A stretch of 12,070 bases of DNA from a virus. Lineage: Duplodnaviria; Heunggongvirae; Uroviricota; Caudoviricetes. The position numbers and the translations under genes are program-made. The stretch lies in the IMG/VR virus record IMGVR_UViG_3300029721_000142; one strand, given 5' to 3'. Every line of letters starts with the position of its first letter. Position 1 is the first letter of the stretch. The notes beneath the pieces were generated by a model. It saw only the letters and a program-made list of their open reading frames with translations, ran no database searches and was not told the DNA's origin. Positions 1 through 10,055 of the stretch are shown here, piece after piece.

Positions 1-1230
1 ATGAGCAGAGCACTTAACAAACTGAGCGATACACAGCTGAGGAAAATCAACGGCACACCCGCCCAAAAAACAGCCTTTCTTAATGACGGTGGAAACCTGA
101 GCGTCAGGCATTCAACCAGTGGCCTTTTAACCTGGTATTTCACTTACAGGGCCGGAACGGGAAGGGGGGCACCACCGGAACGCATTAAGCTGGGAAATTA
201 TCCTGATCTGAGCCTGAAATCAGCCAGGGAAAAAGCCGCCCAGTGTCGCGCATGGCTGGCAGAGGGGAAAAATCCACGTCATGAAATGAATTACACCGTA
301 CAGGAAGCGTTAAAGCCGGTAACGGTTGGCGATGCGCTCACCTACTGGCTTGAGTCGTACGCAAAGGAAAACCGCGTGGATTATGCCGCCCTGAAAAAGC
401 GCCTTAATAATCACGTAATACAGCACATTGGTGCTATGCCGCTGGATAAATGCGAGCTACGGCACTGGCTGGCCTGTTTTGACCAGGTGGCAAAGCGAAC
501 GCCTGTTACTGCCGGATTCTTGCTACAGACGTGCAAACAGGCGCTTAAGTTCTGCCGGAGGCGGCGCTATGCAATCAGCAACGTTCTTGATGATATGAGT
601 GTGGCGGACGTTGGGAAAAAACCGGATATAAGCGAGCGCGTCTTAAGCACCAAAGAACTTGGCGAATTATTGCAGGCACTGGACAAAAAAATATTTTCCC
701 CTTACTACGTCGCACTAATCCGCCTCCTGATTGTTTTCGGATGCCGGACGGTAGAACTGAGGTTATCGGAGATCAGCGAGTGGGATTTTACCGAAATGCT
801 CTGGACCGTGCCGAAAGAACACAGCAAAACGAAGGTGGCAATATTCCGGCCCATACCGGAAGCAATACTGCCGTTCGTCACGCAGCTGGTGGAGCAGAAC
901 AGGCACACGGGCTTATTGCTGGGGGAAGTGAAACAGGAAACAAGCGTGTCGCAGTACGGCAGATTAGCGCACAGGAGGCTAAAACACCCTCACTGGTCAC
1001 TGCATGACATCCGGCGCACCTTTACAACCATGCTGAACGATTTAGGCGTTGATCCGCATGTCGTGGAGCAGCTTACAGGTCATCAGATGCCAGGGATGCA
1101 ACGAGTCTATAACCATTCCCGTTATCTGGATGCGAAACGTGACGCGCTGGATATGTGGACGGAGCGGTTAGGGATACTGGCGGGAACACATGAAAACGTA
1201 ACCACATTGCCAATAGCCAGAGAAATATAA
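1..1230 (+). CDS. int: Tyrosine recombinase / integrase, P4-type
   Basis: 409-aa ORF. C-terminal catalytic region carries the tyrosine-recombinase signature (LHDIRRTF ... LTGHQMPGMQRVYNHSRY, i.e. His-x-x-Arg then the Tyr nucleophile region). N-terminal ~80 aa (LSVRHSTSGLLTWYFTYR) resemble the arm-binding domain of P4-family integrases. Position at the island edge fits. Family assignment from recalled signatures. Confidence 0.9.
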   Translation: MSRALNKLSDTQLRKINGTPAQKTAFLNDGGNLSVRHSTSGLLTWYFTYRAGTGRGAPPERIKLGNYPDLSLKSAREKAAQCRAWLAEGKNPRHEMNYTVQEALKPVTVGDALTYWLESYAKENRVDYAALKKRLNNHVIQHIGAMPLDKCELRHWLACFDQVAKRTPVTAGFLLQTCKQALKFCRRRRYAISNVLDDMSVADVGKKPDISERVLSTKELGELLQALDKKIFSPYYVALIRLLIVFGCRTVELRLSEISEWDFTEMLWTVPKEHSKTKVAIFRPIPEAILPFVTQLVEQNRHTGLLLGEVKQETSVSQYGRLAHRRLKHPHWSLHDIRRTFTTMLNDLGVDPHVVEQLTGHQMPGMQRVYNHSRYLDAKRDALDMWTERLGILAGTHENVTTLPIAREI

Positions 1231-1836: not shown

Positions 1837-2212
1837 ATGAATACTGGATATTCTCCCGAACAAGGGCGGGGCTTCGTTCGTCCTGAAAAACAGAATCTGC
1901 AAAATTTTGCCGAAATTATTCCGGTTATTTCCGGCCTTACTGGCGGGAGTGAAACCAATATTGCTAACGCCAGAGCGTTGCAGATGTTTGATGATAAAAA
2001 GGGAGTAAATTTAACTTACACCCCTGACGGCAATCAGAATATGAGCATTATCTCTGAGTCAGGTTTCTACAAACTAATAAAAACAAAAAGCGCCCCGTTG
2101 CCGGAGCGCCTTTGTGAACAATTAACCTACTGCGCAAAAAATGAATCTGAGCAGTGGGATTATATCAACCATGTGGAGAAGCGCCACAATTGCCGAATAA
2201 CGGGCAAAACAA
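1837..2212 (+). pseudogene. Protein-like 5' part of a 423-codon ORF (1837..3108); probable 3'-truncated gene remnant, possibly with a Bro-N/antirepressor-like fragment
   Basis: The first ~125 codons have normal protein composition (ISESGFYKLIKTKSAPLPERL is faintly Bro-N-like). From about 2212 to 2922 the same frame becomes Cys/Ser/Arg-rich nonsense while the opposite strand holds two well-formed small genes and a terminator. The frame reopens as a plausible small gene only at 2923. No in-frame stop exists before 3108. Confidence 0.3.
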
Positions 2213-2233
2213 AGGCCACCCGCTACGGTGGCC
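2201..2233 (-). terminator. Rho-independent terminator for the minus-strand two-gene operon
   Basis: Perfect 7-bp stem GGCCACC / GGTGGCC (2214-2220 and 2227-2233) with a 6-nt loop. On the minus strand it is followed by TTTGTTTTG. It lies about 80 nt downstream of the 62-aa gene stop. Confidence 0.5.
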
Positions 2234-2312
2234 CCTCGACACAAGCTACACGTTATCCCCAACGCATGAGCATTGCCAACAATGCCACATTTGCGGCTGG
2301 TGGGCAATGCAA

Positions 2313-2501
2313 TCAGTCTGGTTCAGTTCGTTGCCATACCTGCAATGAGCGCTTTTCCCTGTACTCTTTAAGGAATTGCTCAAGGGCAAAAGCACATGGC
2401 GCGAATCTTTCTGATTCATGCTCTATCTTTCTGCGCCGTCTTTTCCGTGCCGGTGATAATGTTTTGGTCAATTCTTTATCGGTCATTGTGTTGTCCTGCA
2501 T
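2313..2501 (-). CDS. Small basic protein (62 aa), downstream partner of the RHH gene; function unknown
   Basis: ORF in the same frame and operon as the RHH gene. Contains an arginine/lysine cluster (ARKRRRRK) followed by a predicted helical segment. An alternative start exists at the second Met (MTDKEL...). Confidence 0.45.
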   Translation of the reverse strand: MQDNTMTDKELTKTLSPARKRRRRKIEHESERFAPCAFALEQFLKEYREKRSLQVWQRTEPD

Positions 2502-2543
2502 AGCAATGCGCCGTAGTTCCTCACACCACGGCGCTGATGGTGA

Positions 2544-2723
2544 TTACTCTGGTTCTTTGGCCTTGCGCCGCTGGCGATATTCAACTTCTCGTTTTAATGC
2601 CGCAGTAACAAATTGCCCCGTACTTTCGCCAGGCATTTTTACCGCCTCAACATTGTTCATAACTTCATGCGGAACCCTTGCCGCAACGGTTTGTGATTTT
2701 GCGTTTACTGCTTTTGTCGCCAT
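2544..2723 (-). CDS. Ribbon-helix-helix (CopG/Arc/MetJ-like) DNA-binding protein, 59 aa; candidate repressor or antitoxin
   Basis: Hand-translated from the minus strand (below the ORF-track size cutoff): MATKAVNAKSQTVAARVPHEVMNNVEAVKMPGESTGQFVTAALKREVEYRQRRKAKEPE. Layout is beta strand (TVAARVP), helix A, loop, helix B, typical of RHH proteins. RBS GAGGGG sits 7 nt upstream of the ATG and an in-frame stop lies 5 codons upstream. It faces the operator cluster at 2773-2826. Confidence 0.65.
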   Translation of the reverse strand: MATKAVNAKSQTVAARVPHEVMNNVEAVKMPGESTGQFVTAALKREVEYRQRRKAKEPE

Positions 2724-2772
2724 GTGGTGTACCCCTCATAAAAAACAAATGCAGTATGCAGGAAAAAAAATA

Positions 2773-2826
2773 AGTGTTCAACACTTGACGTGTTTAACAC
2801 CTGGGTTTAAATTGGTGTTCAACACC
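2773..2826. promoter_or_regulatory. Operator cluster: three copies of the palindrome GTGTT(C/T)AACAC overlapping divergent promoters
   Basis: Seen directly: aGTGTTcAACACt (2773-2785), GTGTTtAACAC (2790-2800), gGTGTTcAACACc (2814-2826). A plus-strand promoter candidate is TTGACG (2785-2790), 17-nt spacer, TAAATT (2808-2813). A minus-strand promoter candidate is TTGAAC, 17-nt spacer, CATACT upstream of the RHH gene. Operators overlap the -35, spacer and +1 regions. Confidence 0.6.
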
Positions 2827-2922
2827 TTGTTGGCGCAAGGTGCAGAAACGACGAAACCCGGCAGTGCGCTAACACTAACCGGGCTTCTAACCACCAACGA
2901 TAGCGAAAGTATCGAGGTAGCT

Positions 2923-3108
2923 ATGAGAAATCATACCACACACCCGCAAGGGCGGGACTCGCACGACCTGAATAAATACATCTGGCGTTTTATCGCCCTG
3001 AGCACGGCACAACCGCGCGTGATTACCATCGAGGCCACCAGCGAACAGGAAGCGCGTCAGCAATCTCCTGATGGCTGCGTGATGGTATTCGCTGCCCGTA
3101 TTCGCTAG
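2923..3108 (+). CDS. Small protein (61 aa), tentatively Icd-like/Ash-region-like; first gene of the early operon
   Basis: ATG at 2923 with RBS GAGGT 5 nt upstream. Protein MRNHTTHPQGRDSHDLNKYIWRFIALSTAQPRVITIEATSEQEARQQSPDGCVMVFAARIR. The ATSE.EAR....FAAR motif resembles small Icd-like proteins found upstream of replication genes in P4-like prophages (from memory, unverified). Confidence 0.45.
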   Translation: MRNHTTHPQGRDSHDLNKYIWRFIALSTAQPRVITIEATSEQEARQQSPDGCVMVFAARIR

Positions 3109-3794: not shown

Positions 3795-4094
3795 ATGAAA
3801 CTTAAATATTCTGGCTTAACTGCCAGTGGCAACACTCACCCTAAATTTACGCGCGGTGATATTTACCGCGACCAGTACGGCGGCACGGTAATGATTAAGG
3901 GCGTGGAAGAACGGCGCGTAACCTACCGCCGTGAAGGTTACGAATATGATTGCGTGATGCCTGTTTATCAGTTCCGGCGTGATTTTTCTCTGGTACAGAC
4001 CGCGCCGCATAACGTGCCCACCAGCAACGCCAGGGCACGGGCAAACATCCAGAAGCTGAAAACCATGATTAACGGATTCAGGGGCAAGAAATGA
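3795..4094 (+). CDS. Hypothetical protein (99 aa)
   Basis: ORF whose stop overlaps the rep start (ATGA at 4091-4094), implying translational coupling. No family recognised with confidence. Confidence 0.55.
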   Translation: MKLKYSGLTASGNTHPKFTRGDIYRDQYGGTVMIKGVEERRVTYRREGYEYDCVMPVYQFRRDFSLVQTAPHNVPTSNARARANIQKLKTMINGFRGKK

Positions 4095-5491
4095 AAAGCG
4101 CACCGAACTTAAAAAAACAGCCTTACGACAAGATGACCGAAGTCATTATTTTTGCGGGTAGTGATGCCTGGGCACATGCGAAACAGTGGCAGGAACAGGA
4201 CGGGCGACTGGCTGGCGATAATGTGCCTCCCGTTGTGCTGGCTGATGATCAACTGGATGAACTGGCAGACCTGAGAATCATCGACGAGGGGCGCTATTGT
4301 GTCCGGCTGTACAAGGCAGGCCACATCAGGCCATCAAATATTAATGCCATTGCGCACAAGCTGGCGGCGGCGGGTGTAACTGATGCGAATTATTACCCCG
4401 AAGGGATGCACAGCCATATGCGGGAGAACTGGCGCGAATACCTGGAACGGGTGCGCGGGAAAGAGCCGGTGGAAGAAAAAAACCACCAGCGAAAAACCAC
4501 GCTACCGATGAGCGTTGGATCTACCGGATACGACACGCAACTGGATTACGTGGTTAAGGGGATTATTCCGGCGGTATCGCTATGCAGCATATACGGGGCT
4601 AGCGGGTCCTATAAATCATTCCTTGCCGGATCGTGGGCGTGCCATGTTGCCACTGGTCGCCAGTGGGGAGGCCGCAGGGTTGCACATGGTGCGGTTCTCT
4701 ATGTGGTTGGTGAAGGCGGTATAGGTGTTCCGCGTCGTGTAAAAGCCTGGGAGGTTGTGCACGATGAGCAGGTGAAAAATCTGTATCTGGTAAACCGCCC
4801 CATCTTTCCGGCTGCCCCGCTTGATGTTGATGAAATGGTTATCGCTGCCCGTCAGGTGGAGCGGGAAACGGGTAAACCTGTACGCATGATTATTCTGGAT
4901 ACGCTGGCGCGTTGCTTTGGTGGGAATGATGAAAATGATTCCCGTGATATGGGGGCGTTTATCCGTGGTTGTGACGAACTGAAACGACGCACAGGGGCCA
5001 CGGTGCTGGTGGTTCACCATTCCGGCAAGGATGAGACGAAAGGCGCGCGCGGTTCCAGTGCATTTCGTGCTTCGCTGGATGCTGAATACCGGATACGCAG
5101 GGAGGACGCAGGAAGCGAAGCGCTGGTTATCTCATGCACCAAAATGAAGGACGCGGAGGAACTCAAAGAAGCCGCATATGACTTACGCGTGGTGGAGCTT
5201 TTTACCGACGCTGACGGTGAATTAATCACGTCGCTGGTGGTGGTGGATGATCCGCGCCCTCCTGTTGAACTGGAGCGCATCGAGGAGGCAGGGAACAAGA
5301 CGGAAAACCATACCGCGCTATGGGGGTGCATCCGTTCACGCACACAGAACGGCGACAAGTGCACGATCCCGCTGTTACGTGATGACATGAAAAAGCTGGG
5401 GTATGAAATGAAAAACTTCCGGCGCTGGCTGTACAAGCTGGAAAAAGATGGGGTTATTCGTATCGATGGGGATGATGTAGCGCCGCTATAA
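4091..5491 (+). CDS. Replication protein: RecA-fold RepA/DnaB-like ATPase (AAA_25 type) with an N-terminal TOPRIM-like region
   Basis: 466 aa. P-loop IYGASGSYKSFLAG, Walker B MIILDTLARC, and the RepA-type motif VLVVHHSGKDETKGARGSSAFRASLD. N-terminal EVIIFAGSDAWAHA ... PVVLADDQLDE is suggestive of a TOPRIM-like domain (inference). Followed immediately by an iteron array. Confidence 0.8.
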   Translation: MKSAPNLKKQPYDKMTEVIIFAGSDAWAHAKQWQEQDGRLAGDNVPPVVLADDQLDELADLRIIDEGRYCVRLYKAGHIRPSNINAIAHKLAAAGVTDANYYPEGMHSHMRENWREYLERVRGKEPVEEKNHQRKTTLPMSVGSTGYDTQLDYVVKGIIPAVSLCSIYGASGSYKSFLAGSWACHVATGRQWGGRRVAHGAVLYVVGEGGIGVPRRVKAWEVVHDEQVKNLYLVNRPIFPAAPLDVDEMVIAARQVERETGKPVRMIILDTLARCFGGNDENDSRDMGAFIRGCDELKRRTGATVLVVHHSGKDETKGARGSSAFRASLDAEYRIRREDAGSEALVISCTKMKDAEELKEAAYDLRVVELFTDADGELITSLVVVDDPRPPVELERIEEAGNKTENHTALWGCIRSRTQNGDKCTIPLLRDDMKKLGYEMKNFRRWLYKLEKDGVIRIDGDDVAPL

Positions 5492-5691: not shown

Positions 5692-5943
5692 ATGACCCAA
5701 AAACGCAGAGACAGAACAGAGCCAAAATATAAAGCGTTAGACATGACTGAGCACACCTTAAAGGTGGCAATCAGAACGATAGACCGCCACACGCGGGAAG
5801 GATACGCGAAGGAACATCCCGACCTGATAAGCGCATTCATGACCACGGCGGCGGCAAACTTTGCCACGCTGACAGAACGGGAGATTGCCGAAGCGGAACA
5901 GGTAACAACCATCAACGTTAAAACCGGAGAGGTGGAATCATGA
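5692..5943 (+). CDS. Hypothetical protein (83 aa)
   Basis: ATG at 5692 with RBS GAGAGG upstream. The ORF-track start at 5662 lies inside the iterons. The stop overlaps the ssb start (ATGA). Confidence 0.5.
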   Translation: MTQKRRDRTEPKYKALDMTEHTLKVAIRTIDRHTREGYAKEHPDLISAFMTTAAANFATLTEREIAEAEQVTTINVKTGEVES

Positions 5944-6350
5944 CAGCACAGATAGCCGCTTACGGGCGGCTGGTGGACGACCCGCAGGTAAAACAGACCA
6001 GCAAGGGCACACCGATGACGCTGGCGCGTATGGCGGTCCCCCTTCCGTGCAGCCAGGCAGATGACGGAACGGCGACGATGTGGTTATCCGTCCTGGCATT
6101 TGGCAGACAGGCCGAAGCACTGGAAAGGCACCGCAAGGGTGAACTCCTGAGCGTGGCGGGTAACATGCAGATCAGCCAGTGGACTGGGCAGAACGGAGAA
6201 ACGCGGCAGGGTTATCAGGTTATTGCAGACAGCGTAATCAGTGCCCGTGCGGCACGTCCTGGCGGGAACAGACGCAAAACCACAGGCACACAGGGTAATC
6301 AGCTACCAGCGGGAGGCGATGACCCTTACGGTGATGATATTCCGTTCTGA
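5940..6350 (+). CDS. ssb: Single-stranded DNA-binding protein (phage-type SSB)
   Basis: 136 aa. OB-fold-like core (IAAYGRLVDDPQVKQTSKG ... WLSVLAFGRQAE ... GELLSVAGNMQISQWTGQNGETRQGYQVIADSV), a Gly/Gln-rich linker, and the hallmark acidic C-terminal tail DDIPF. Confidence 0.9.
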   Translation: MTAQIAAYGRLVDDPQVKQTSKGTPMTLARMAVPLPCSQADDGTATMWLSVLAFGRQAEALERHRKGELLSVAGNMQISQWTGQNGETRQGYQVIADSVISARAARPGGNRRKTTGTQGNQLPAGGDDPYGDDIPF

Positions 6351-6360
6351 GGGGGTGAGG

Positions 6361-6609
6361 ATGGTACATGACCGCATAGCGGAGGAACTCGAGGCAAAAG
6401 GCTTTTACCGGAGGGCGGCGGCACGATGGGGTGAAGTCATGCAACTGGTGGAGACAGACAAGGAACGGCATCAGGTTACGATGCGACGGCTGGAATGTTC
6501 CAGGAAGGCACAGAGGCCACCGGAGCCGCCAACGGAGAACTATGCAGACCTGAGAAATGCAGTAAATCGCACTTACGCAGACATGGGGCTGAGCAAATTA
6601 GCAGAGTAG
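6361..6609 (+). CDS. PerC-family-like transcriptional regulator (82 aa)
   Basis: ATG at 6361 after RBS gaggggg; the ORF-track start at 6241 overlaps ssb and is rejected. The N-terminus MVHDRIAEELEAKGFYRRAAARWGEVM matches my recollection of the PerC family signature (LE.KGLYRRAA.RW). Last gene before the double terminator. Confidence 0.55.
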   Translation: MVHDRIAEELEAKGFYRRAAARWGEVMQLVETDKERHQVTMRRLECSRKAQRPPEPPTENYADLRNAVNRTYADMGLSKLAE

Positions 6610-6632
6610 GAATACCAGAACCACACCACACA

Positions 6633-6654
6633 GCCGGAGCAATCCGGCTTTTTT
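6633..6654 (+). terminator. Rho-independent terminator (GCCGGA gcaa TCCGGC + T6)
   Basis: Seen directly: 6-bp GC stem, 4-nt loop, six T residues, 24 nt after the PerC-like stop. Confidence 0.7.
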
Positions 6655-6660
6655 GCGCCC

Positions 6661-6702
6661 AAAAAAAGCCCGATAAGGTCAGAGGTGGCTTATCGGGCTT
6701 TT
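6661..6702. terminator. Second, bidirectional-type terminator (A7, GCCCGATAAG, 11-nt loop, CTTATCGGGC, T4)
   Basis: Seen directly: 10-bp perfect stem flanked by an A-run and a T-run. Tandem with the previous terminator, separating the early and late operons. Confidence 0.65.
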
Positions 6703-6779
6703 GCATATGAGGTTTTTTGGTGCACTGACACACATGATCGGGATAATCATTTCATAATTTGCAACGCAACTCAATTTCA

Positions 6780-6830
6780 TTGCACAAAATGCAATCATGA
6801 TTATAATCATAACTGGATGAACATCCAGTT
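6780..6830 (+). promoter_or_regulatory. Late-operon promoter (TTGCAC, 16-nt spacer, consensus TATAAT) embedded in two perfect palindromes
   Basis: Seen directly: -35 TTGCAC (6780-6785); -10 TATAAT (6802-6807); 14-bp palindrome ATGATTATAATCAT (6797-6810) covering the -10; palindrome AACTGGATG-aa-CATCCAGTT (6811-6830) covering the predicted +1. RBS aagagga precedes the ATG at 6864. Confidence 0.55.
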
Positions 6831-6863
6831 ATGATTTTTTAAGTCAAAGAGGAATTTCTTACT

Positions 6864-7070
6864 ATGGCTGAAGAGAAAAAAGGCGGTGTTTCGGTGTACA
6901 TAAGCCCCGACATCGTGAAGGCGCTCAAGGAACGCCACCAGCAGAACGTAAAAGCAGGCATTGCGGCAGGACTTGATCCGCTGGCGATGGTTGAGCCGTC
7001 AACAGGCTGGCAGGTACGCGCCTATTTACGCGCGGCGCTGGGTATGAATCAGGTTCACGGGGGTGAATAA
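6864..7070 (+). CDS. Hypothetical protein (68 aa), first gene of the late/capsid operon
   Basis: ORF with a good RBS. Its stop overlaps the capsid gene start (TAATG), implying translational coupling. Function unknown; a scaffold or size-determination role is speculation. Confidence 0.6.
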   Translation: MAEEKKGGVSVYISPDIVKALKERHQQNVKAGIAAGLDPLAMVEPSTGWQVRAYLRAALGMNQVHGGE

Positions 7071-8125
7071 TGACAGTAAAAGCAATGGCACTTAACACTA
7101 ACCAGCTTTTTGCGTACCTGAATCGCGGGGATATTGCGGAATTTAAATTCAGTCCGCTGTTTACCACGCTGTTTTTCCCGAACGTGGCGACATTCAGCAC
7201 GCAAAACATCATGCTGGATACCCTGGACATTGAAGAAGTCACCATGTCGGCGTTTTGTTCGCCTATGGTGGGTAGCCAGGTTCAGCGCGATAAAGGGTAC
7301 GAAACCAGCACGATTAAACCTGGCTACATGAAGCCAAAGCACGAAATCGATCCAACGAAAACCATCATGCGCATGGCTGGAGAAGATCCGGCACAGCTTA
7401 ACGACCCTACCTATCGCCGTATGCGCCTGATTACTGGCAATATGCGCCGCCAGATAAACGCCATAAAAGCGCGCGTGGAATGGCTGGCGGTAAATGCGGT
7501 AACGACCGGAAAAAACATCATTGAAGGCGAAGGCATAGAGCGCTATGAAATCGACTGGAAGATACCGGAAAAAAACATCATAGAGCAGGCCGACGGGAAA
7601 AAATGGTCAGAGCAGGACAAAGAAACCCACGATCCAATCTATGATATCGAACTATACGCCGATCAGGCTGGTTGCCCCGCAAACGTCATGATTATGGGCG
7701 CTGAGGTATGGCGAACGTTACGCAGCTTTAAAAAATTCCGTGAGCTGTACGATCTTTCCCGTGGTTCAGAGTCCGCCGCAGAGCTGGCCTGTAAAAACCT
7801 GGGCGAAGTGGTGAGCTTTAAAGGCTATCTGGGCGATATTGCCCTTATCGTCTATTCCGGCAAATACACTGACAGCGACGGCACAGAAAAATATTTCCTT
7901 GAGCCTGATTTGCTTGTCCTGGGCAACACCAACAATAAAGGGCTGGTGGCCTATGGTGCGATTATGGATCAGGACGCAGTAAGAACGGGCGCAACGCAAA
8001 ACATGTTTTACCCGAAAAACTGGATTGAGGACGGCGATCCGGCGATTGAGTACGTGCAGACGCACAGCGCACCGCAGCCGGTTCCGGCAGATATTCGCAA
8101 ATTTGTTACCGTCAAAATTGGTTAA
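7070..8125 (+). CDS. Major capsid protein, lambda gpE-like (HK97 fold)
   Basis: 351 aa. Blocks of recalled similarity to lambda gpE (341 aa): EFKFSPLFTTLFF vs KFKFDPLFLRLFF; KPGYMKPKHEIDP vs TPGYVKPKHEVNP; DPTYRRMRLITGNMR vs DPAYRRRRIIMQNMR; KWSEQDKETHDPIYDIELYA vs EWSKRDKSTYDPTDDIEAYA; YPKNWIEDGDPAIEY vs YPKNWVTTGDPAREF. Similar length. Confidence 0.9.
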   Translation: MTVKAMALNTNQLFAYLNRGDIAEFKFSPLFTTLFFPNVATFSTQNIMLDTLDIEEVTMSAFCSPMVGSQVQRDKGYETSTIKPGYMKPKHEIDPTKTIMRMAGEDPAQLNDPTYRRMRLITGNMRRQINAIKARVEWLAVNAVTTGKNIIEGEGIERYEIDWKIPEKNIIEQADGKKWSEQDKETHDPIYDIELYADQAGCPANVMIMGAEVWRTLRSFKKFRELYDLSRGSESAAELACKNLGEVVSFKGYLGDIALIVYSGKYTDSDGTEKYFLEPDLLVLGNTNNKGLVAYGAIMDQDAVRTGATQNMFYPKNWIEDGDPAIEYVQTHSAPQPVPADIRKFVTVKIG

Positions 8126-8136
8126 CGGGGGATTCT

Positions 8137-8472
8137 ATGGACACTCCATACATTGAGTTATTTGCAGGCAGTCAGCAGGTCGCCACGACGCTGGTACATT
8201 TTGCCGCTGATGCTGGCGTTATTCAGGAATTTACCCCGCTGATGCTGGCGGACAATGGCGAGTTTAAGCCGTGGGATGGTAAGGAATCTGGCAAGGCTGT
8301 TTATCTGACCTCGTACCCTGTGGACACGTCAAAGCAGAAATCAGCACAGTGTTACAAGACGGGGATATTCAATATTGCCGCCGTTAACTGGCCTGAGAGC
8401 GTCGACACCGATGCGAAAAAATGCGCCGCCTTTGCGGGTTCCGGCGTATCCGTTCAGCCGCTGGCCCGATAA
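8137..8472 (+). CDS. Head decoration protein, lambda gpD-like
   Basis: 111 aa vs lambda gpD 110 aa. Recalled motif similarity: TPLMLADNGEFKPWDG vs TPLMLDTSSRKLVAWDG; YKTGIF vs YKSGTF; WPE; KKCAAFAGSGVS vs KKRTAFAGTAIS. Gene order is E-like then D-like, the reverse of lambda. Confidence 0.85.
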   Translation: MDTPYIELFAGSQQVATTLVHFAADAGVIQEFTPLMLADNGEFKPWDGKESGKAVYLTSYPVDTSKQKSAQCYKTGIFNIAAVNWPESVDTDAKKCAAFAGSGVSVQPLAR

Positions 8473-8484
8473 GCAGGGGGAACG

Positions 8485-8898
8485 ATGGCAACGAATGAAA
8501 GCATCATGACGCTACCGCTGGCGAGTAAATTTAAAGCCGAAGCGCGGGCAATGGCTGACAGAGGTTTATCAACCTATGAGGCCGTATATCAACTAAACAA
8601 ACTGGAAGAGCAGGACAAGCCGCGCGCTGATGCGATTATGGCGCTTCATGAGCATAAAGACTATCAGCCGCTGTTACGTGCAATGGCAAACGTGCCATGT
8701 ATTAGCGTCGATAATGCTCGTGAAATCCTGAACATGACCATAGAGCAGGAGCGCCCAAAGGTTGCACCAGAGCTTACCGCAGCCTTTGAAAACTTTATGG
8801 ACATGCACAGCCCGCAAGCCGTATCAGCTGGCATGGCATACGATGGCAGAAACCAGGGCGATGACGGCGACATCGATCGCATACTGAAAACCATCTGA
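8485..8898 (+). CDS. Hypothetical protein (137 aa) between the decoration gene and cos
   Basis: ORF with RBS cagggggaacg, followed by a terminator. No family recognised. It occupies the position that gpFI has after gene E in lambda (positional analogy only). Confidence 0.6.
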   Translation: MATNESIMTLPLASKFKAEARAMADRGLSTYEAVYQLNKLEEQDKPRADAIMALHEHKDYQPLLRAMANVPCISVDNAREILNMTIEQERPKVAPELTAAFENFMDMHSPQAVSAGMAYDGRNQGDDGDIDRILKTI

Positions 8899-8903
8899 GA
8901 CAA

Positions 8904-8926
8904 GGCCGGAGAAATCCGGCTTTTTT
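8904..8926 (+). terminator. Rho-independent terminator (GCCGGA gaaa TCCGGC + T6)
   Basis: Seen directly. The hairpin is nearly identical to the one at 6633-6654 (loop gaaa vs gcaa). Confidence 0.65.
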
Positions 8927-8927
8927 A

Positions 8928-8992
8928 CGGGTCCTTCCTGGAATTATGGCCCGTTACGGGGCGGCGACCTCGCGGGTTTTCGCTATTTATGA
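8928..8992 (+). other. cos-like element, left copy: cosQ-like flank + cosN (GGGCGGCGACCT, 8959-8970) + 22 bp of lambda-like left-end sequence; no R-site array
   Basis: Seen directly: cgggtccttcctggaattatggcccgttacg GGGCGGCGACCT cgcgggttttcgctatttatga. The 12-mer equals the phage lambda cohesive end, and the flanks resemble the lambda right end (ACGGGTCCTTTCCGG...GTTACG) and left end (CGCGGGTTTTCGCTATTTATGA), quoted from memory. It is an inverted duplicate (63/65) of 9676-9740. Confidence 0.75.
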
Positions 8993-9059
8993 CGTTTTTC
9001 CGTGAAGGTGACACCACCACCACTTGATTAATATTTAACCATGCAGTTAAGGTAACATT

Positions 9060-9494
9060 ATGATTGATAAAGCTTGTTTTGTAAGTCAGCAGGAAATAGC
9101 TGAACATTTCAAGGTTAACAGAACCACTATTCGCGCATGGACCAAACAGGGGATGCCGTATCTTAATGCGGATCGCGGAAAGTCTGGCGGTTATCACATC
9201 GGGCATACATTGCTTTGGTCTTCAGGTAAAAGCCGTCTTGAGGCCATCAGATATCACGTAGAAACCAGTGCGCTGGAAAAAATTATGTTTGCCAGGCTGC
9301 TTTCATCTGAGCGTGACGAGTACTCCAGTGAAGAAACAGAACATCGATTTGATGAAGGTTTGCAGATTTACGGCTATTCACCGGAAGATGTGAGCAAGGC
9401 ACGAAATAAAATGGCTGGCTTTCTGGCTGGGTGGCGTCATGCCGTAAGCGTTCGCCGTGCCAGCATGGAGCAATCAGCCGATACAGAACAGTAA
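9060..9494 (+). CDS. Small terminase subunit-like protein with a Nu1-type N-terminal DNA-binding domain; candidate packaging-specificity or redirection factor
   Basis: 144 aa. N-terminus MIDKACFVSQQEIAEHFKVNRTTIRAWTKQGMPYLNADRGKSGGYHI parallels lambda Nu1 MEVNKKQLADIFGASIRTIQNWQEQGMPVLRGGGKGNEVLY (winged HTH). The C-terminal half is unlike the Nu1 region that binds gpA. The gene sits between the two cos copies. Confidence 0.8.
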   Translation: MIDKACFVSQQEIAEHFKVNRTTIRAWTKQGMPYLNADRGKSGGYHIGHTLLWSSGKSRLEAIRYHVETSALEKIMFARLLSSERDEYSSEETEHRFDEGLQIYGYSPEDVSKARNKMAGFLAGWRHAVSVRRASMEQSADTEQ

Positions 9495-9562: not shown

Positions 9563-9740
9563 ATGTCCGGTTTTAGTGTCTGTTTTTTGCGCATGTCCGG
9601 TTCATGGAAAGCATGTTTTTATATTTTTCATATGGTTAACTTGCAGAGAAACCGGACATGGATCCCGAAAAATTTTCATAAATAGTGAAAACGCGCGAGG
9701 TCGCCGCCCCGTAACGGGCCATAATTCCAGGAAGGACCCG
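9563..9740 (-). other. Complete cos-like site in inverted orientation: cosQ-like flank, cosN (9698-9709), three R-type repeats ATGTCCGGTT, AT-rich bend region
   Basis: Seen directly. cosN lies on the minus strand as aggtcgccgccc. Repeat copies are at 9563-9572 and 9593-9602 (direct) and 9650-9659 (inverted, nearest cosN), with an AT-rich segment at 9611-9633 between them. This mirrors the lambda cosN-R3-I1-R2-R1 layout but with a different repeat sequence (lambda R elements contain CGTTTCC). Confidence 0.75.
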
Positions 9741-9773
9741 ACGACACCAGACTATCAGAACGATGGGGGCACA

Positions 9774-10055
9774 ATGACAGAAGCCGAAATACTGCGATTA
9801 ATCCGCCGCGTTGCCGGAATCAGCCAGCAGGCCGACGAACAGACCACGCAGCCGGACAGCGTGACCGCCGAAAATTATGTTCGTGTGGTTGCTGAGGTGA
9901 TTCGCCGTAATGGTATCCAGCTTAATGATGTGGATATGCGCAACATACGGATCCGCGTTCTTGAAATGCTGGCCTACAATCGCCGCGTGGCACTGTATCG
10001 GGAAACGGAGAAAATTACGTACCACTGGAAGAAGCCGGAGCGGTTGCGGCGGTAA
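9774..10055 (+). CDS. Hypothetical protein (93 aa), last island gene
   Basis: ATG at 9774 with RBS gatggggg 5 nt upstream. The ORF-track start at 9576 would read through the cos repeat and is rejected. No family recognised. Confidence 0.55.
   Translation: MTEAEILRLIRRVAGISQQADEQTTQPDSVTAENYVRVVAEVIRRNGIQLNDVDMRNIRIRVLEMLAYNRRVALYRETEKITYHWKKPERLRR

Follow-up and report, generated by a model that had tools for sequence, protein, structure and literature searches.

Near-identical predicted terminators flank the capsid gene cluster of an EcCICFT073-type phage satellite

The virus record IMGVR_UViG_3300029721_000142, analysed here at its full length of 12,070 nucleotides (the window), carries a capsid gene cluster bounded by two near-identical hairpins. 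Both are predicted Rho-independent terminators, and they are probably paralogous copies of a single terminator that is reused at the ends of rightward units in E. coli EcCICFT073-like islands. We propose that common descent and mosaic recombination in this lineage account for their near-identity, with no functional need for the two ends to match.

The island and its capsid cluster

The window is a phage-inducible chromosomal island (PICI) of E. coli of the EcCICFT073 type, a phage satellite, inserted between roxA and phoQ. It encodes an integrase, AlpA (PF05930), a RepA helicase, SSB and PerC. Its assignment as a PICI rests on int, alpA, replication genes, lambda-type cos sites lacking the phage cosB, and rpp, all in one direction and at a chromosomal site. 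EcCICFT073 is the prototype Gram-negative PICI (PMC6092414, PMC6739421, PMC9026076), and it has the same order: int, alpA, replication genes, ssb, perC, c1499 (capsid), c1500 (decoration), cos1, c1503 (rppA) and cos2. It differs in having a primase where the window has a RepA-type helicase. Over positions 6600-9060 the window and CFT073 are 97.4% identical, and both hairpins are present in CFT073 (NC_004431.1, 1385231 and 1387503) and in Nissle 1917-type elements. Terminators go unmentioned in the published descriptions of EcCICFT073; indeed, the word "terminator" is absent from PMC6092414, PMC6739421 and PMC9026076. The literature on O-island 51 / CP-933C gave no transcript-end information for the region. 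Both hairpins are previously unannotated, and they are an ordinary kind of element.

The features of the region are as follows.

6361-6609, + strand: perC-family regulator gene (PF06069 PerC, E = 2e-35), last of the early (replication and accessory) block
6633-6654, + strand: hairpin 1, GCCGGA-GCAA-TCCGGC plus T6 (GCCGGAGCAATCCGGCTTTTTT), predicted Rho-independent terminator
6656-6705, - strand: back-to-back hairpin, A7-GCCCGATAAG...CTTATCGGGC-T4, from fold and score
6779-6807, + strand: promoter-like region of the capsid genes, read from the sequence and kept in relatives
6864-8898, + strand: capsid gene cluster, tightly packed or overlapping (open reading frames, Pfam, PHROGs)
6864-7070, + strand: orf68, open reading frame
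7070-8125, + strand: major capsid protein, lambda gpE type (PF03864, 2e-52)
8137-8472, + strand: head decoration protein, gpD type (PF02924, 2.5e-17)
8485-8898, + strand: orf137, open reading frame
8905-8926, + strand: hairpin 2, GCCGGA-GAAA-TCCGGC plus T6 (GCCGGAGAAATCCGGCTTTTTT), predicted Rho-independent terminator
8929-8970, + strand: cos1, with cosQ-like heptamer GGGTCCT (8929-8935) and cosN GGGCGGCGACCT (8959-8970, exact match)
9060-9494, + strand: rppA, identical in 144 of 144 residues (100%) to its positional counterpart in CFT073
9698-9739, - strand: cos2, inverted, with cosN (9698-9709, exact) and cosQ (9739-9733), no adjoining hairpin

We take the heptamer GGGTCCT to be cosQ from its likeness to that of lambda. 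The perC coordinates agree with the RefSeq CDS of the window-identical locus L001, which maps to 6361-6609. The stretch 6864-8898, a late or capsid operon in the original prediction, comprises capsid and decoration homologues, which correspond to c1499 and c1500 of EcCICFT073 (PMC6092414), and two small open reading frames. Deleted singly, c1499 and c1500 were each dispensable for transfer (PMC6092414). The gene beyond the cluster had been called TerS. It is actually rppA, by its complete identity to the CFT073 protein, and RppA is a TerS-binding protein that acts on the TerS of the helper phage to redirect packaging (PMC6739421); its own resemblance to TerS is confined to the N-terminal HTH region. 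Two functional cos sites have been reported for EcCICFT073 (PMC6092414).

Ahead of orf68, a promoter-like region with -35 TTGCAC (6780-6785), a 16-nt spacer and -10 TATAAT (6802-6807) is kept in the E. coli, Salmonella and Edwardsiella relatives, and it scores below the threshold of the promoter scan. A candidate operator, the palindrome ATTGCA-N5-TGCAAT (6779-6795), overlaps this region.

Anatomy of the hairpins and of the upstream junction

As originally noticed, the two hairpins differ in one loop base; it is the second loop position alone. Each has a 6-7 bp stem containing four or five G-C pairs, a 4-nt GNRA-type loop and T6 immediately 3' of the stem. Hairpin 1 begins 23 nt past the perC stop codon, and hairpin 2 lies 6 nt past the orf137 stop codon and 2 nt ahead of cosQ. 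When the flanks are included, the two sites make up a direct repeat of 30 nt, 87% identical (6628-6657 and 8900-8929). Within the window, the pattern GCCGGAGNAATCCGGCTTTTTT, allowed up to 3 mismatches, matches the two hairpins only, and 0 of 200 dinucleotide-preserving shuffles of the window contained two matches (mean 0.00).

The core of each hairpin folds at -12 to -13 kcal/mol. In RNA folding, hairpin 1 gave the expected structure at -12.6 kcal/mol (z = -3.3), its stem lengthened to 6632-6649 by an A-U pair; hairpin 2 also folded as expected, at -18 kcal/mol (z = -4.5), with flanking A/U pairs lengthening the stem. The classical terminator score is positive for both, and the d'Aubenton-Carafa-type score of hairpin 1 is about 14. 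The terminator scan listed hairpin 1 and missed hairpin 2, presumably because the maximal stem of the latter consumes three T's and leaves too few for the tail rule; we read this omission as an artefact of the scan and not as evidence against hairpin 2. An Rfam search of the whole window, with an E-value threshold, returned no family at either hairpin. The earlier reading of both hairpins as terminators is supported by their full intrinsic-terminator anatomy. Its coordinates were right for hairpin 1 and one base early for hairpin 2, which was said to start at 8904 and starts at 8905. Position 8904 is a G, able to add a G.U pair to hairpin 2. A 7-bp stem with U6 typically makes an incomplete terminator.

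The back-to-back hairpin at 6656-6705 folds at -21 to -24 kcal/mol on either strand, and its terminator score is 13.9 for the minus strand and -0.9 for the plus strand. The best reading is of a predicted minus-strand terminator (T7 on the minus strand) with a weak plus-strand backup role. In the distant relatives this position holds unrelated GC stems and a long A-run. No convincing minus-strand promoter feeding it was found by eye or by promoter scan.

On the preferred reading, hairpin 1 would end the early block (alpA, the replication genes, ssb and perC) and, with the minus-strand hairpin at 6656-6705, may form a two-way boundary. The capsid cluster would restart from its own promoter-like region near 6780-6807, and hairpin 2 would end the capsid unit, leaving cos1 and rppA outside it. 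Past hairpin 2, a promoter for rppA is weakly predicted (GTGACA-16-AATATT, 9008-9035); if rppA has no such promoter, it would need read-through, and hairpin 2 would then fall short of a full stop. The hairpin anatomy and placement, the cluster's own promoter-like region, the kept positions of the predicted terminators and the minus-strand terminator candidate fit a separated capsid transcription unit. Insulation of that unit from the early genes and from the cos module, as originally suggested, is plausible on these sequence features; actual termination, its efficiency and insulation as the purpose are what we infer from them. Three separately controlled units are predicted in all (early and accessory genes; capsid genes; cos and rppA). 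This would add transcription-unit boundaries to the map of EcCICFT073, the best-studied Gram-negative phage satellite, and gives exact coordinates at which to distinguish independent from read-through expression of rppA and the capsid genes.

Recurrence of the hairpin in related elements

Close copies were surveyed in 80 elements, namely the window and 79 relatives identified by their capsid protein. Without exception the 166 copies have the orientation of the coding strand, and 161 of them start 5-25 nt past a stop codon that closes an open frame of 50 codons or more. They lie downstream of genes and point in the same direction. Hairpin 1 occupies the perC/capsid junction in 50 of 80 relatives, as also in L001, and in 21 others of the 80 it is found about 170 nt more to the upstream side, where a second cos-like segment comes after it. 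Many elements carry the hairpin a third time, arranged as perC-hairpin-orf75-hairpin. An identical hairpin is placed after the stop codon of orf93, ssb or perC, whether or not the island has the capsid module, and in capsid-less islands it comes after the last early gene. Near-identity is not a property of the capsid module: early operons of capsid-less islands end in this hairpin too, and many elements contain it three times.

The loops of these capsid-homology relatives are GCAA, GAAA and GTAA, more rarely GAAAA and GAAG. Variation falls on the N of a GNRA-type loop, consistent with a constraint at the RNA level. Two of the three stem variants are transitions giving G.U pairs (GCTGGA and TTCGGC). 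Hairpin 2 is invariant in 72 aligned relatives, in which its T-run is 6 to 9 nt long; among the relatives generally the T-run ranges from T5 to T9, with the sole exception of L082, where it is deleted. Conservation of the hairpin is no higher than that of the preceding 15 nt of coding sequence.

Of 5426 complete E. coli genomes, 1250 have the hairpin, at a median of 2 places per carrier genome, which makes it part of the accessory and not of the core genome. In about a quarter of complete E. coli genomes the 22-nt sequence marks this satellite family, and it could help to delimit such islands. REP/BIME-like palindromes and miniature mobile elements were considered and rejected on the single orientation of the copies, their placement after stop codons and their absence from 77% of genomes. 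The 21-nt hairpin pattern was also seen in viral contigs encoding no island proteins.

More distant relatives were reached through protein homologues and their contigs; a scan for the capsid protein with one genome per species gave no relative. Where the capsid protein is 87% identical, the upstream hairpin is GCCGGGA-TTTT-TCCCGGC, with one extra, compensated base pair. The downstream hairpin is unrelated in an E. coli relative with 65% capsid identity (TCGCGAGG...CCTCGCGA plus T8); it is AGCCGAT-ACC-ATCGGCT plus T6 in a Salmonella relative (68%) and GGGCGCTAACTAGCGCCC plus T6 in an Edwardsiella relative (65%). All three of these hairpins separate the capsid module from a cosQ-like sequence, with a gap to cosQ of about 10 to about 38 nt. 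Structure is kept despite sequence change, through G.U transitions, the extra compensated pair and whole replacement by an unrelated hairpin with a T-run; within the close family the stem does not vary, and the compensated changes are found at a few more distant loci. Thus the position of a predicted terminator is conserved, and only in the EcCICFT073-like lineage are the two ends alike. The expectation that the same hairpin flanks capsid modules in related elements is realised among close relatives but fails at 65-68% capsid identity, where the ends differ.

Other readings and known systems

Chance convergence of two independent GC-rich terminators has a vanishingly small probability and is effectively refuted already. 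Terminators often have short GC-rich stems and GNRA loops, and the 21-nt pattern does turn up in the viral contigs without island proteins. However, no shuffle of the window (0 of 200) gave two matches, the likeness reaches into the flanks (30 nt at 87%), and the same sequence recurs at homologous junctions family-wide. We regard it as highly improbable that hairpin 2 is an extension of cosQ recognised by terminase or by Rpp-TerS, its likeness to hairpin 1 being secondary. The U-tract does end just 2 nt ahead of cosQ, and in sibling and capsid-less islands the hairpin stands immediately ahead of a second cos type with matches in phages CP-1639, 1720a-02 and mEp460. Against this, helper-type phages have cosQ and cosN without the hairpin, and so does cos2, even though it reportedly functions (PMC6092414). 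The T-run that separates hairpin from cosQ is 6 to 9 nt long, the gap widens to between about 10 and about 38 nt in the distant relatives, and in window-type elements hairpin 1 and the third copies have no adjacent cos. Moreover, homology to lambdoid phages excludes hairpin 2 because it starts at 8921-8924, and homology between cos1 and cos2 starts at cosQ. Hairpin 2 is common neither to the helper-phage cos nor to cos2, and the same is true for the second cos type; membership of cos is rejected on the phage and cos2 alignments.

A role at the DNA level, in which short repeats at junctions allow cassettes (orf75, the capsid module) to be gained, lost or swapped by recombination and near-identity is itself selected, seems quite unlikely. 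It draws on the homology blocks that contain the capsid gene, 55 of 80 of which begin at 6622-6662, in hairpin 1 or the adjacent hairpin, and on the variation among elements in a cassette bounded by two copies (perC-hairpin-orf75-hairpin). In sibling elements the upstream copy precedes the second cos-like segment, and the repeated unit there is therefore hairpin plus cosQ. The right-hand breakpoint, however, lies within cosB (8999-9005) and not at hairpin 2; all copies point one way, just past stop codons and with a U-tract, none of which a pure recombination site needs; and the two ends of the distant relatives hold terminators of unrelated sequence. A length of 22 bp is at or below that usual for efficient RecA recombination. 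Modular acquisition, as first suggested, finds support in the left breakpoints at hairpin 1 but not in the right ones.

It is also possible, though unlikely, that the hairpins are conditional or partial terminators, which would stop transcription in the resting island and after induction be read through to give one rightward unit that includes rppA. The read-through would come from an antitermination factor (the island AlpA, or helper Q for embedded copies) or from leakage that sets expression ratios. Every island gene is rightward, AlpA is required for expression and transfer (PMC6092414), and the predicted rppA promoter is weak. The window AlpA falls in PF05930, and Pseudomonas aeruginosa AlpA is a processive antiterminator (PMC7969949, PMC9371919); some relatives lie inside helper-prophage late operons, from which late transcription is expected to enter the island (PMC10111431). 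However, the window AlpA has no match at E <= 1 to the solved P. aeruginosa AlpA structures, its sole PDB match being another AlpA-family protein. An AlpA-type switch would be expected to have a terminator in the stretch from the alpA promoter region to the first genes beyond it; none was found near that promoter or just past alpA, where a hairpin lacks a T-run. A literature search found no link of the island AlpA to antitermination, and the capsid cluster's own kept promoter-like region would be unnecessary if read-through supplied its expression. A broader scheme, distinctly unlikely in our view, would place all the junction terminators under common regulation: at rest they would keep perC, the capsid genes and rppA separate, and upon helper induction a single antitermination activity (AlpA or Q) would yield one late transcript across cos. 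A related thought is that cos may be kept deliberately transcription-free by a terminator 2-38 nt upstream, unlike the cos of helper phages.

The lambda tR'/Q system and the P. aeruginosa AlpA bypass (PMC7969949, PMC9371919) share with the island a one-directional mobile element, internal intrinsic terminators and an AlpA-family regulator; they differ in that no promoter-close terminator or loading site was found in the island. Lambda nut boxB likewise has a short stem and a GNRA-like loop (GAAA or GAAAA), but boxB lacks a U-tract and has boxA ahead of it, whereas the island hairpins carry U6. A lambda nut site (boxA plus boxB) was rejected on this U6 and on a search near 6633 and 8905, which gave no boxA-like sequence.

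For paralogous terminators at the ends of units, the preferred reading, intrinsic terminators at mobile-element module boundaries are expected and ordinary. Terminator-bounded cassettes ("morons") and mosaic module junctions are reportedly known in lambdoid prophages from the work of Hendrix and Juhala. The island resembles them in that perC and orf75 each have their own terminator and homology breakpoints coincide with a terminator; it differs in that one terminator sequence serves every unit. Canonical E. coli Rho-independent terminators have the same GC stem, GNRA-type 4-nt loop, U-tract, placement after the stop codon and gene orientation, with no structural difference from the hairpins described here. 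What is unusual is the reuse of one sequence at two or three junctions and family-wide.

The island and its two hairpins

From position 1 to about 10,000 every gene of the window lies on the plus strand. The element is an EcCICFT073-type phage-inducible chromosomal island, of the same kind as O-island 51/CP-933C, and its insertion site is between roxA and phoQ in E. coli. Over 6600-9060 the window is 97.4% identical to the prototype island of E. coli CFT073, in which both hairpins described here are present (NC_004431.1, positions 1385231 and 1387503).

Features of the window
1-1230, plus: integrase
1596-1784, plus: AlpA-family regulator (PF05930)
1837-3108, plus: 423-aa ORF; by PHROGs, an Ant/Bro anti-repressor-like N-terminal part and a repressor-like C-terminal part
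after the 423-aa ORF and before the helicase gene, plus: DUF4222 gene
4091-5491, plus: RepA-type helicase
5940-6350, plus: SSB
6361-6609, plus: PerC
6633-6654, plus: hairpin 1, GCCGGAGCAATCCGGC then T6
6656-6705, minus: second hairpin, six bases past the T6 of hairpin 1; A7 before, only T4 after
between PerC and the major capsid gene, plus: orf68
6780-6785 and 6802-6807, plus: promoter-like region before orf68, TTGCAC (-35-like), 16-nt spacer, perfect TATAAT
7070-8125, plus: major capsid protein, lambda gpE type
8137-8472, plus: decoration protein, gpD type
8485-8898, plus: orf137, PHROG of unknown function
8905-8926, plus: hairpin 2, GCCGGAGAAATCCGGC then T6
8959-8970, plus: cosN of cos1 (the cos site downstream of hairpin 2), exact
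9698-9739, minus: cos2, lambda-type and inverted; exact cosN (9698-9709) plus cosQ
downstream of the lambda-type cos site, plus: 144-aa protein (RppA) with an N-terminal HTH region

The original prediction had reported two near-identical hairpins with T6 at the two ends of the capsid cluster, and they are indeed there, with a single loop base as their sole difference; hairpin 1 had been placed exactly, and hairpin 2 begins at 8905, one base later than the 8904 first given. Flanking bases included, the two copies make up a direct repeat 30 nt long and 87% identical. The predicted RNA folds reach -12.6 kcal/mol (z = -3.3) for hairpin 1 and -18 kcal/mol (z = -4.5) for hairpin 2, and the classical hairpin-plus-T-tail terminator score is positive for both. 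An automated terminator scan of the window listed hairpin 1 and missed hairpin 2, in our reading an artefact, as the maximal stem takes three T's from the tail.

The gene beyond cos, originally taken for TerS, encodes a protein with 100% identity to its positional counterpart in CFT073, RppA, which binds the helper phage TerS and redirects packaging to the island cos (PMC6739421). The capsid and decoration genes of EcCICFT073 (c1499 and c1500) have been deleted individually and are reportedly dispensable for transfer and interference (PMC6092414).

The hairpin in related elements

It had been suggested that the same hairpin be sought around the capsid modules of relatives. Among 80 viral-contig loci with capsid proteins 94-100% identical, the hairpin flanks the capsid cluster on both sides in nearly all of those that cover the DNA concerned. 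All 166 copies point in the direction of the genes, and 161 of them begin 5-25 nt past a stop codon. Hairpin 2, GGCCGGAGAAATCCGGC, is invariant across 72 aligned loci; the 15 coding bases 5' of it are equally invariant, so its conservation is not exceptional. Its T-run (8921-8926 in the window) varies from 6 to 9 T among loci L003-L082, as do the next bases, and the change in length shifts the spacing between hairpin 2 and cosQ without apparent constraint. In the upstream copy the stem is kept and the loop reads GCAA, GTAA or GAAA, more rarely GAAAA or GAAG; the base that changes is the one a GNRA-type loop leaves free. The stem varied in three ways only: GCTGGA and TTCGGC, transitions giving G.U pairs, and TACGGC, a mismatch. 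A third copy, some 360 nt upstream, is present in many elements, whose order is then perC-hairpin-orf75-hairpin.

The hairpin is not confined to capsid modules, as an exact-pattern scan of viral contigs together with tblastn mapping of the island proteins showed. Capsid-less islands carry it 3' of the last early gene (orf93, ssb or perC), with a cos-like sequence directly 3' of the hairpin. Of 5426 complete E. coli genomes, 1250 have the hairpin, at a median of two places per positive genome, and about 600 have the capsid module, a distribution that marks a satellite-family signature and not a core-genome terminator. The pattern is present as well in viral contigs that encode no island protein, so independent origins of the sequence are possible.

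More distant contigs, with capsid homologues of 87% to 65% identity, were compared at both ends of the cluster.

Hairpins in distant relatives (capsid identity in parentheses)
E. coli L200/L201 (87%): upstream, GCCGGGA-TTTT-TCCCGGC, one extra compensated pair; downstream, the standard GAAA hairpin
E. coli L205/L206 (65%): upstream, as L200/L201; downstream, unrelated TCGCGAGG...CCTCGCGA then T8, about 38 nt before cosQ
Salmonella L202 (68%): no such upstream hairpin on the plus strand; downstream, AGCCGAT-ACC-ATCGGCT then T6, 17 nt before cosQ
Edwardsiella L203 (65%): no such upstream hairpin on the plus strand; downstream, GGGCGCTAACTAGCGCCC then T6, before a cosQ-like sequence

Wobble variants of the GCCGGGA-TTTT-TCCCGGC type include L200 and L206, and most hairpins of these relatives have good terminator scores. 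They offer the strongest comparative evidence that a terminator has probably been selected between the capsid genes and cos, and they show that the two ends need not match. In L201 (9334-11056), L203 (6908-11047) and L204 the satellite capsid module adjoins a full lambdoid head set (gpW, portal, protease, D, E), which looks like the helper-embedded island of PMC10111431.

Sequences flanking the capsid cluster

The second hairpin at 6656-6705 scores 13.9 as a terminator on the minus strand, where it has T7, and -0.9 on the plus strand. At its position the distant relatives have unrelated GC stems and the same long A-run (L200, ~4597-4632; L202, ~4582-4630; L203, ~4600-4645). With plus-strand hairpin 1 it makes a back-to-back pair, which would halt transcription arriving from either side. 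Such a minus-strand terminator would imply that a leftward RNA, so far unannotated and perhaps a small RNA of ~100-150 nt, starts somewhere in 6706-6860; a convincing minus-strand promoter for it was sought and not found.

The promoter-like region before orf68 is common to the window and to the Salmonella and Edwardsiella relatives. Its -35-like TTGCAC is overlapped by the palindrome ATTGCA-N5-TGCAAT (6779-6795), upstream of which lies a related TTTGCAA...TCAA motif, the whole conserved region spanning 6745-6807. The -10 element and predicted start site are overlapped by a perfect 15-bp palindrome followed by T5 (AATCATAACTGGATG/CATCCAGTTATGATT, 6805-6841); L015 does not conserve its left arm, and L200 lacks the palindrome. 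It might serve as an operator, or block read-through transcripts while sparing those that begin at the local promoter.

On the other side, cos2 lies inside a conserved 159-codon ORF (9576-10055), resembles lambda more closely than cos1 does in the bases right after cosN (TATTTATGAAAATTTT), and is the counterpart of the second cos site that has been reported in EcCICFT073 (PMC6092414). In sibling and capsid-less islands (L015 3396-3500; L096, L106, L122 and others) a second cos type directly follows the same hairpin, with a conserved cosQ and a cosN-like sequence, GGGCGGGAGG...; this ~170-nt segment is absent from the window. Two different cos types flank the capsid module in L015-like elements and may widen their helper-phage range.

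Probable termination and competing explanations

From the observed anatomy, orientation, placement and comparative pattern of the hairpins we infer termination and its efficiency. Both are probably intrinsic terminators ending two successive rightward units: hairpin 1 would end the early and accessory genes and hairpin 2 the capsid cluster, with cos1 and rppA beyond the second terminator. Their near-identity would come from descent and recombination in a lineage using one terminator everywhere. Similarity by chance is a weaker explanation; the two hairpins are the only matches to the pattern in the window at up to three mismatches, and two matches arose in none of 200 dinucleotide-preserving shuffles. 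A role within cos is likewise weaker. The U-tract of hairpin 2 does end only 2 nt before the cosQ-like GGGTCCT (8929-8935); yet lambdoid-phage homology begins inside the T-run (8921-8924), homology between cos1 and cos2 begins at cosQ, and the second cos type matches phages CP-1639, 1720a-02 and mEp460, and Stx-converting phages, only from cosQ onward. These three comparisons show that hairpin 2 is joined to cos and is not part of it. Nor do we favor a pure recombination junction. In homology blocks containing the capsid gene, drawn between the window and each of the 80 relatives, 55 left edges fall at 6622-6662, at hairpin 1 or its neighbor, and 48 of the 66 right edges (blocks not running off a contig) fall at 8999-9005, inside cosB and not at hairpin 2. 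The modular acquisition originally suggested thus finds support at the upstream hairpin only; the exchanged unit is the capsid cluster with hairpin 2, cosQ and cosN, and the variable cosB travels with its own rpp allele.

The main rival, which we consider unlikely, holds that the terminators leak or that induction overrides them. In its favor, the island is one-directional and AlpA-dependent (PMC6092414), the AlpA of Pseudomonas acts as a processive antiterminator (PMC7969949, PMC9371919), the rppA promoter prediction is weak, and helper late operons enclose some of the relatives (PMC10111431). However, no terminator was found near the alpA promoter, the solved Pseudomonas AlpA has no detectable match to the window AlpA, and the capsid genes are preceded by a conserved promoter-like region of their own. 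The three main papers on EcCICFT073-like islands do not mention terminators, and the hairpins add new, so far unannotated cases of a very familiar class of element to a satellite that was already characterised. One terminator at every junction, and its position right before cos, are descriptive and unsurprising to a specialist; greater significance would follow only if the terminators were a co-ordinated, antitermination-controlled set.

The orf137 product also matches the C-terminal part of phrog_53 (head-maturation protease family; E = 1.7e-10), a region corresponding in lambda to the nested scaffold protein; it is labelled a head-tail connector in some RefSeq records and may be a scaffold-like protein. 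Inside the 423-aa ORF, the minus strand holds a strong terminator-like hairpin (2113-2086; 12-bp stem and T-run) and a weak, below-threshold symR-like Rfam match (2850-2922), and small minus-strand genes are annotated in this zone of related islands.
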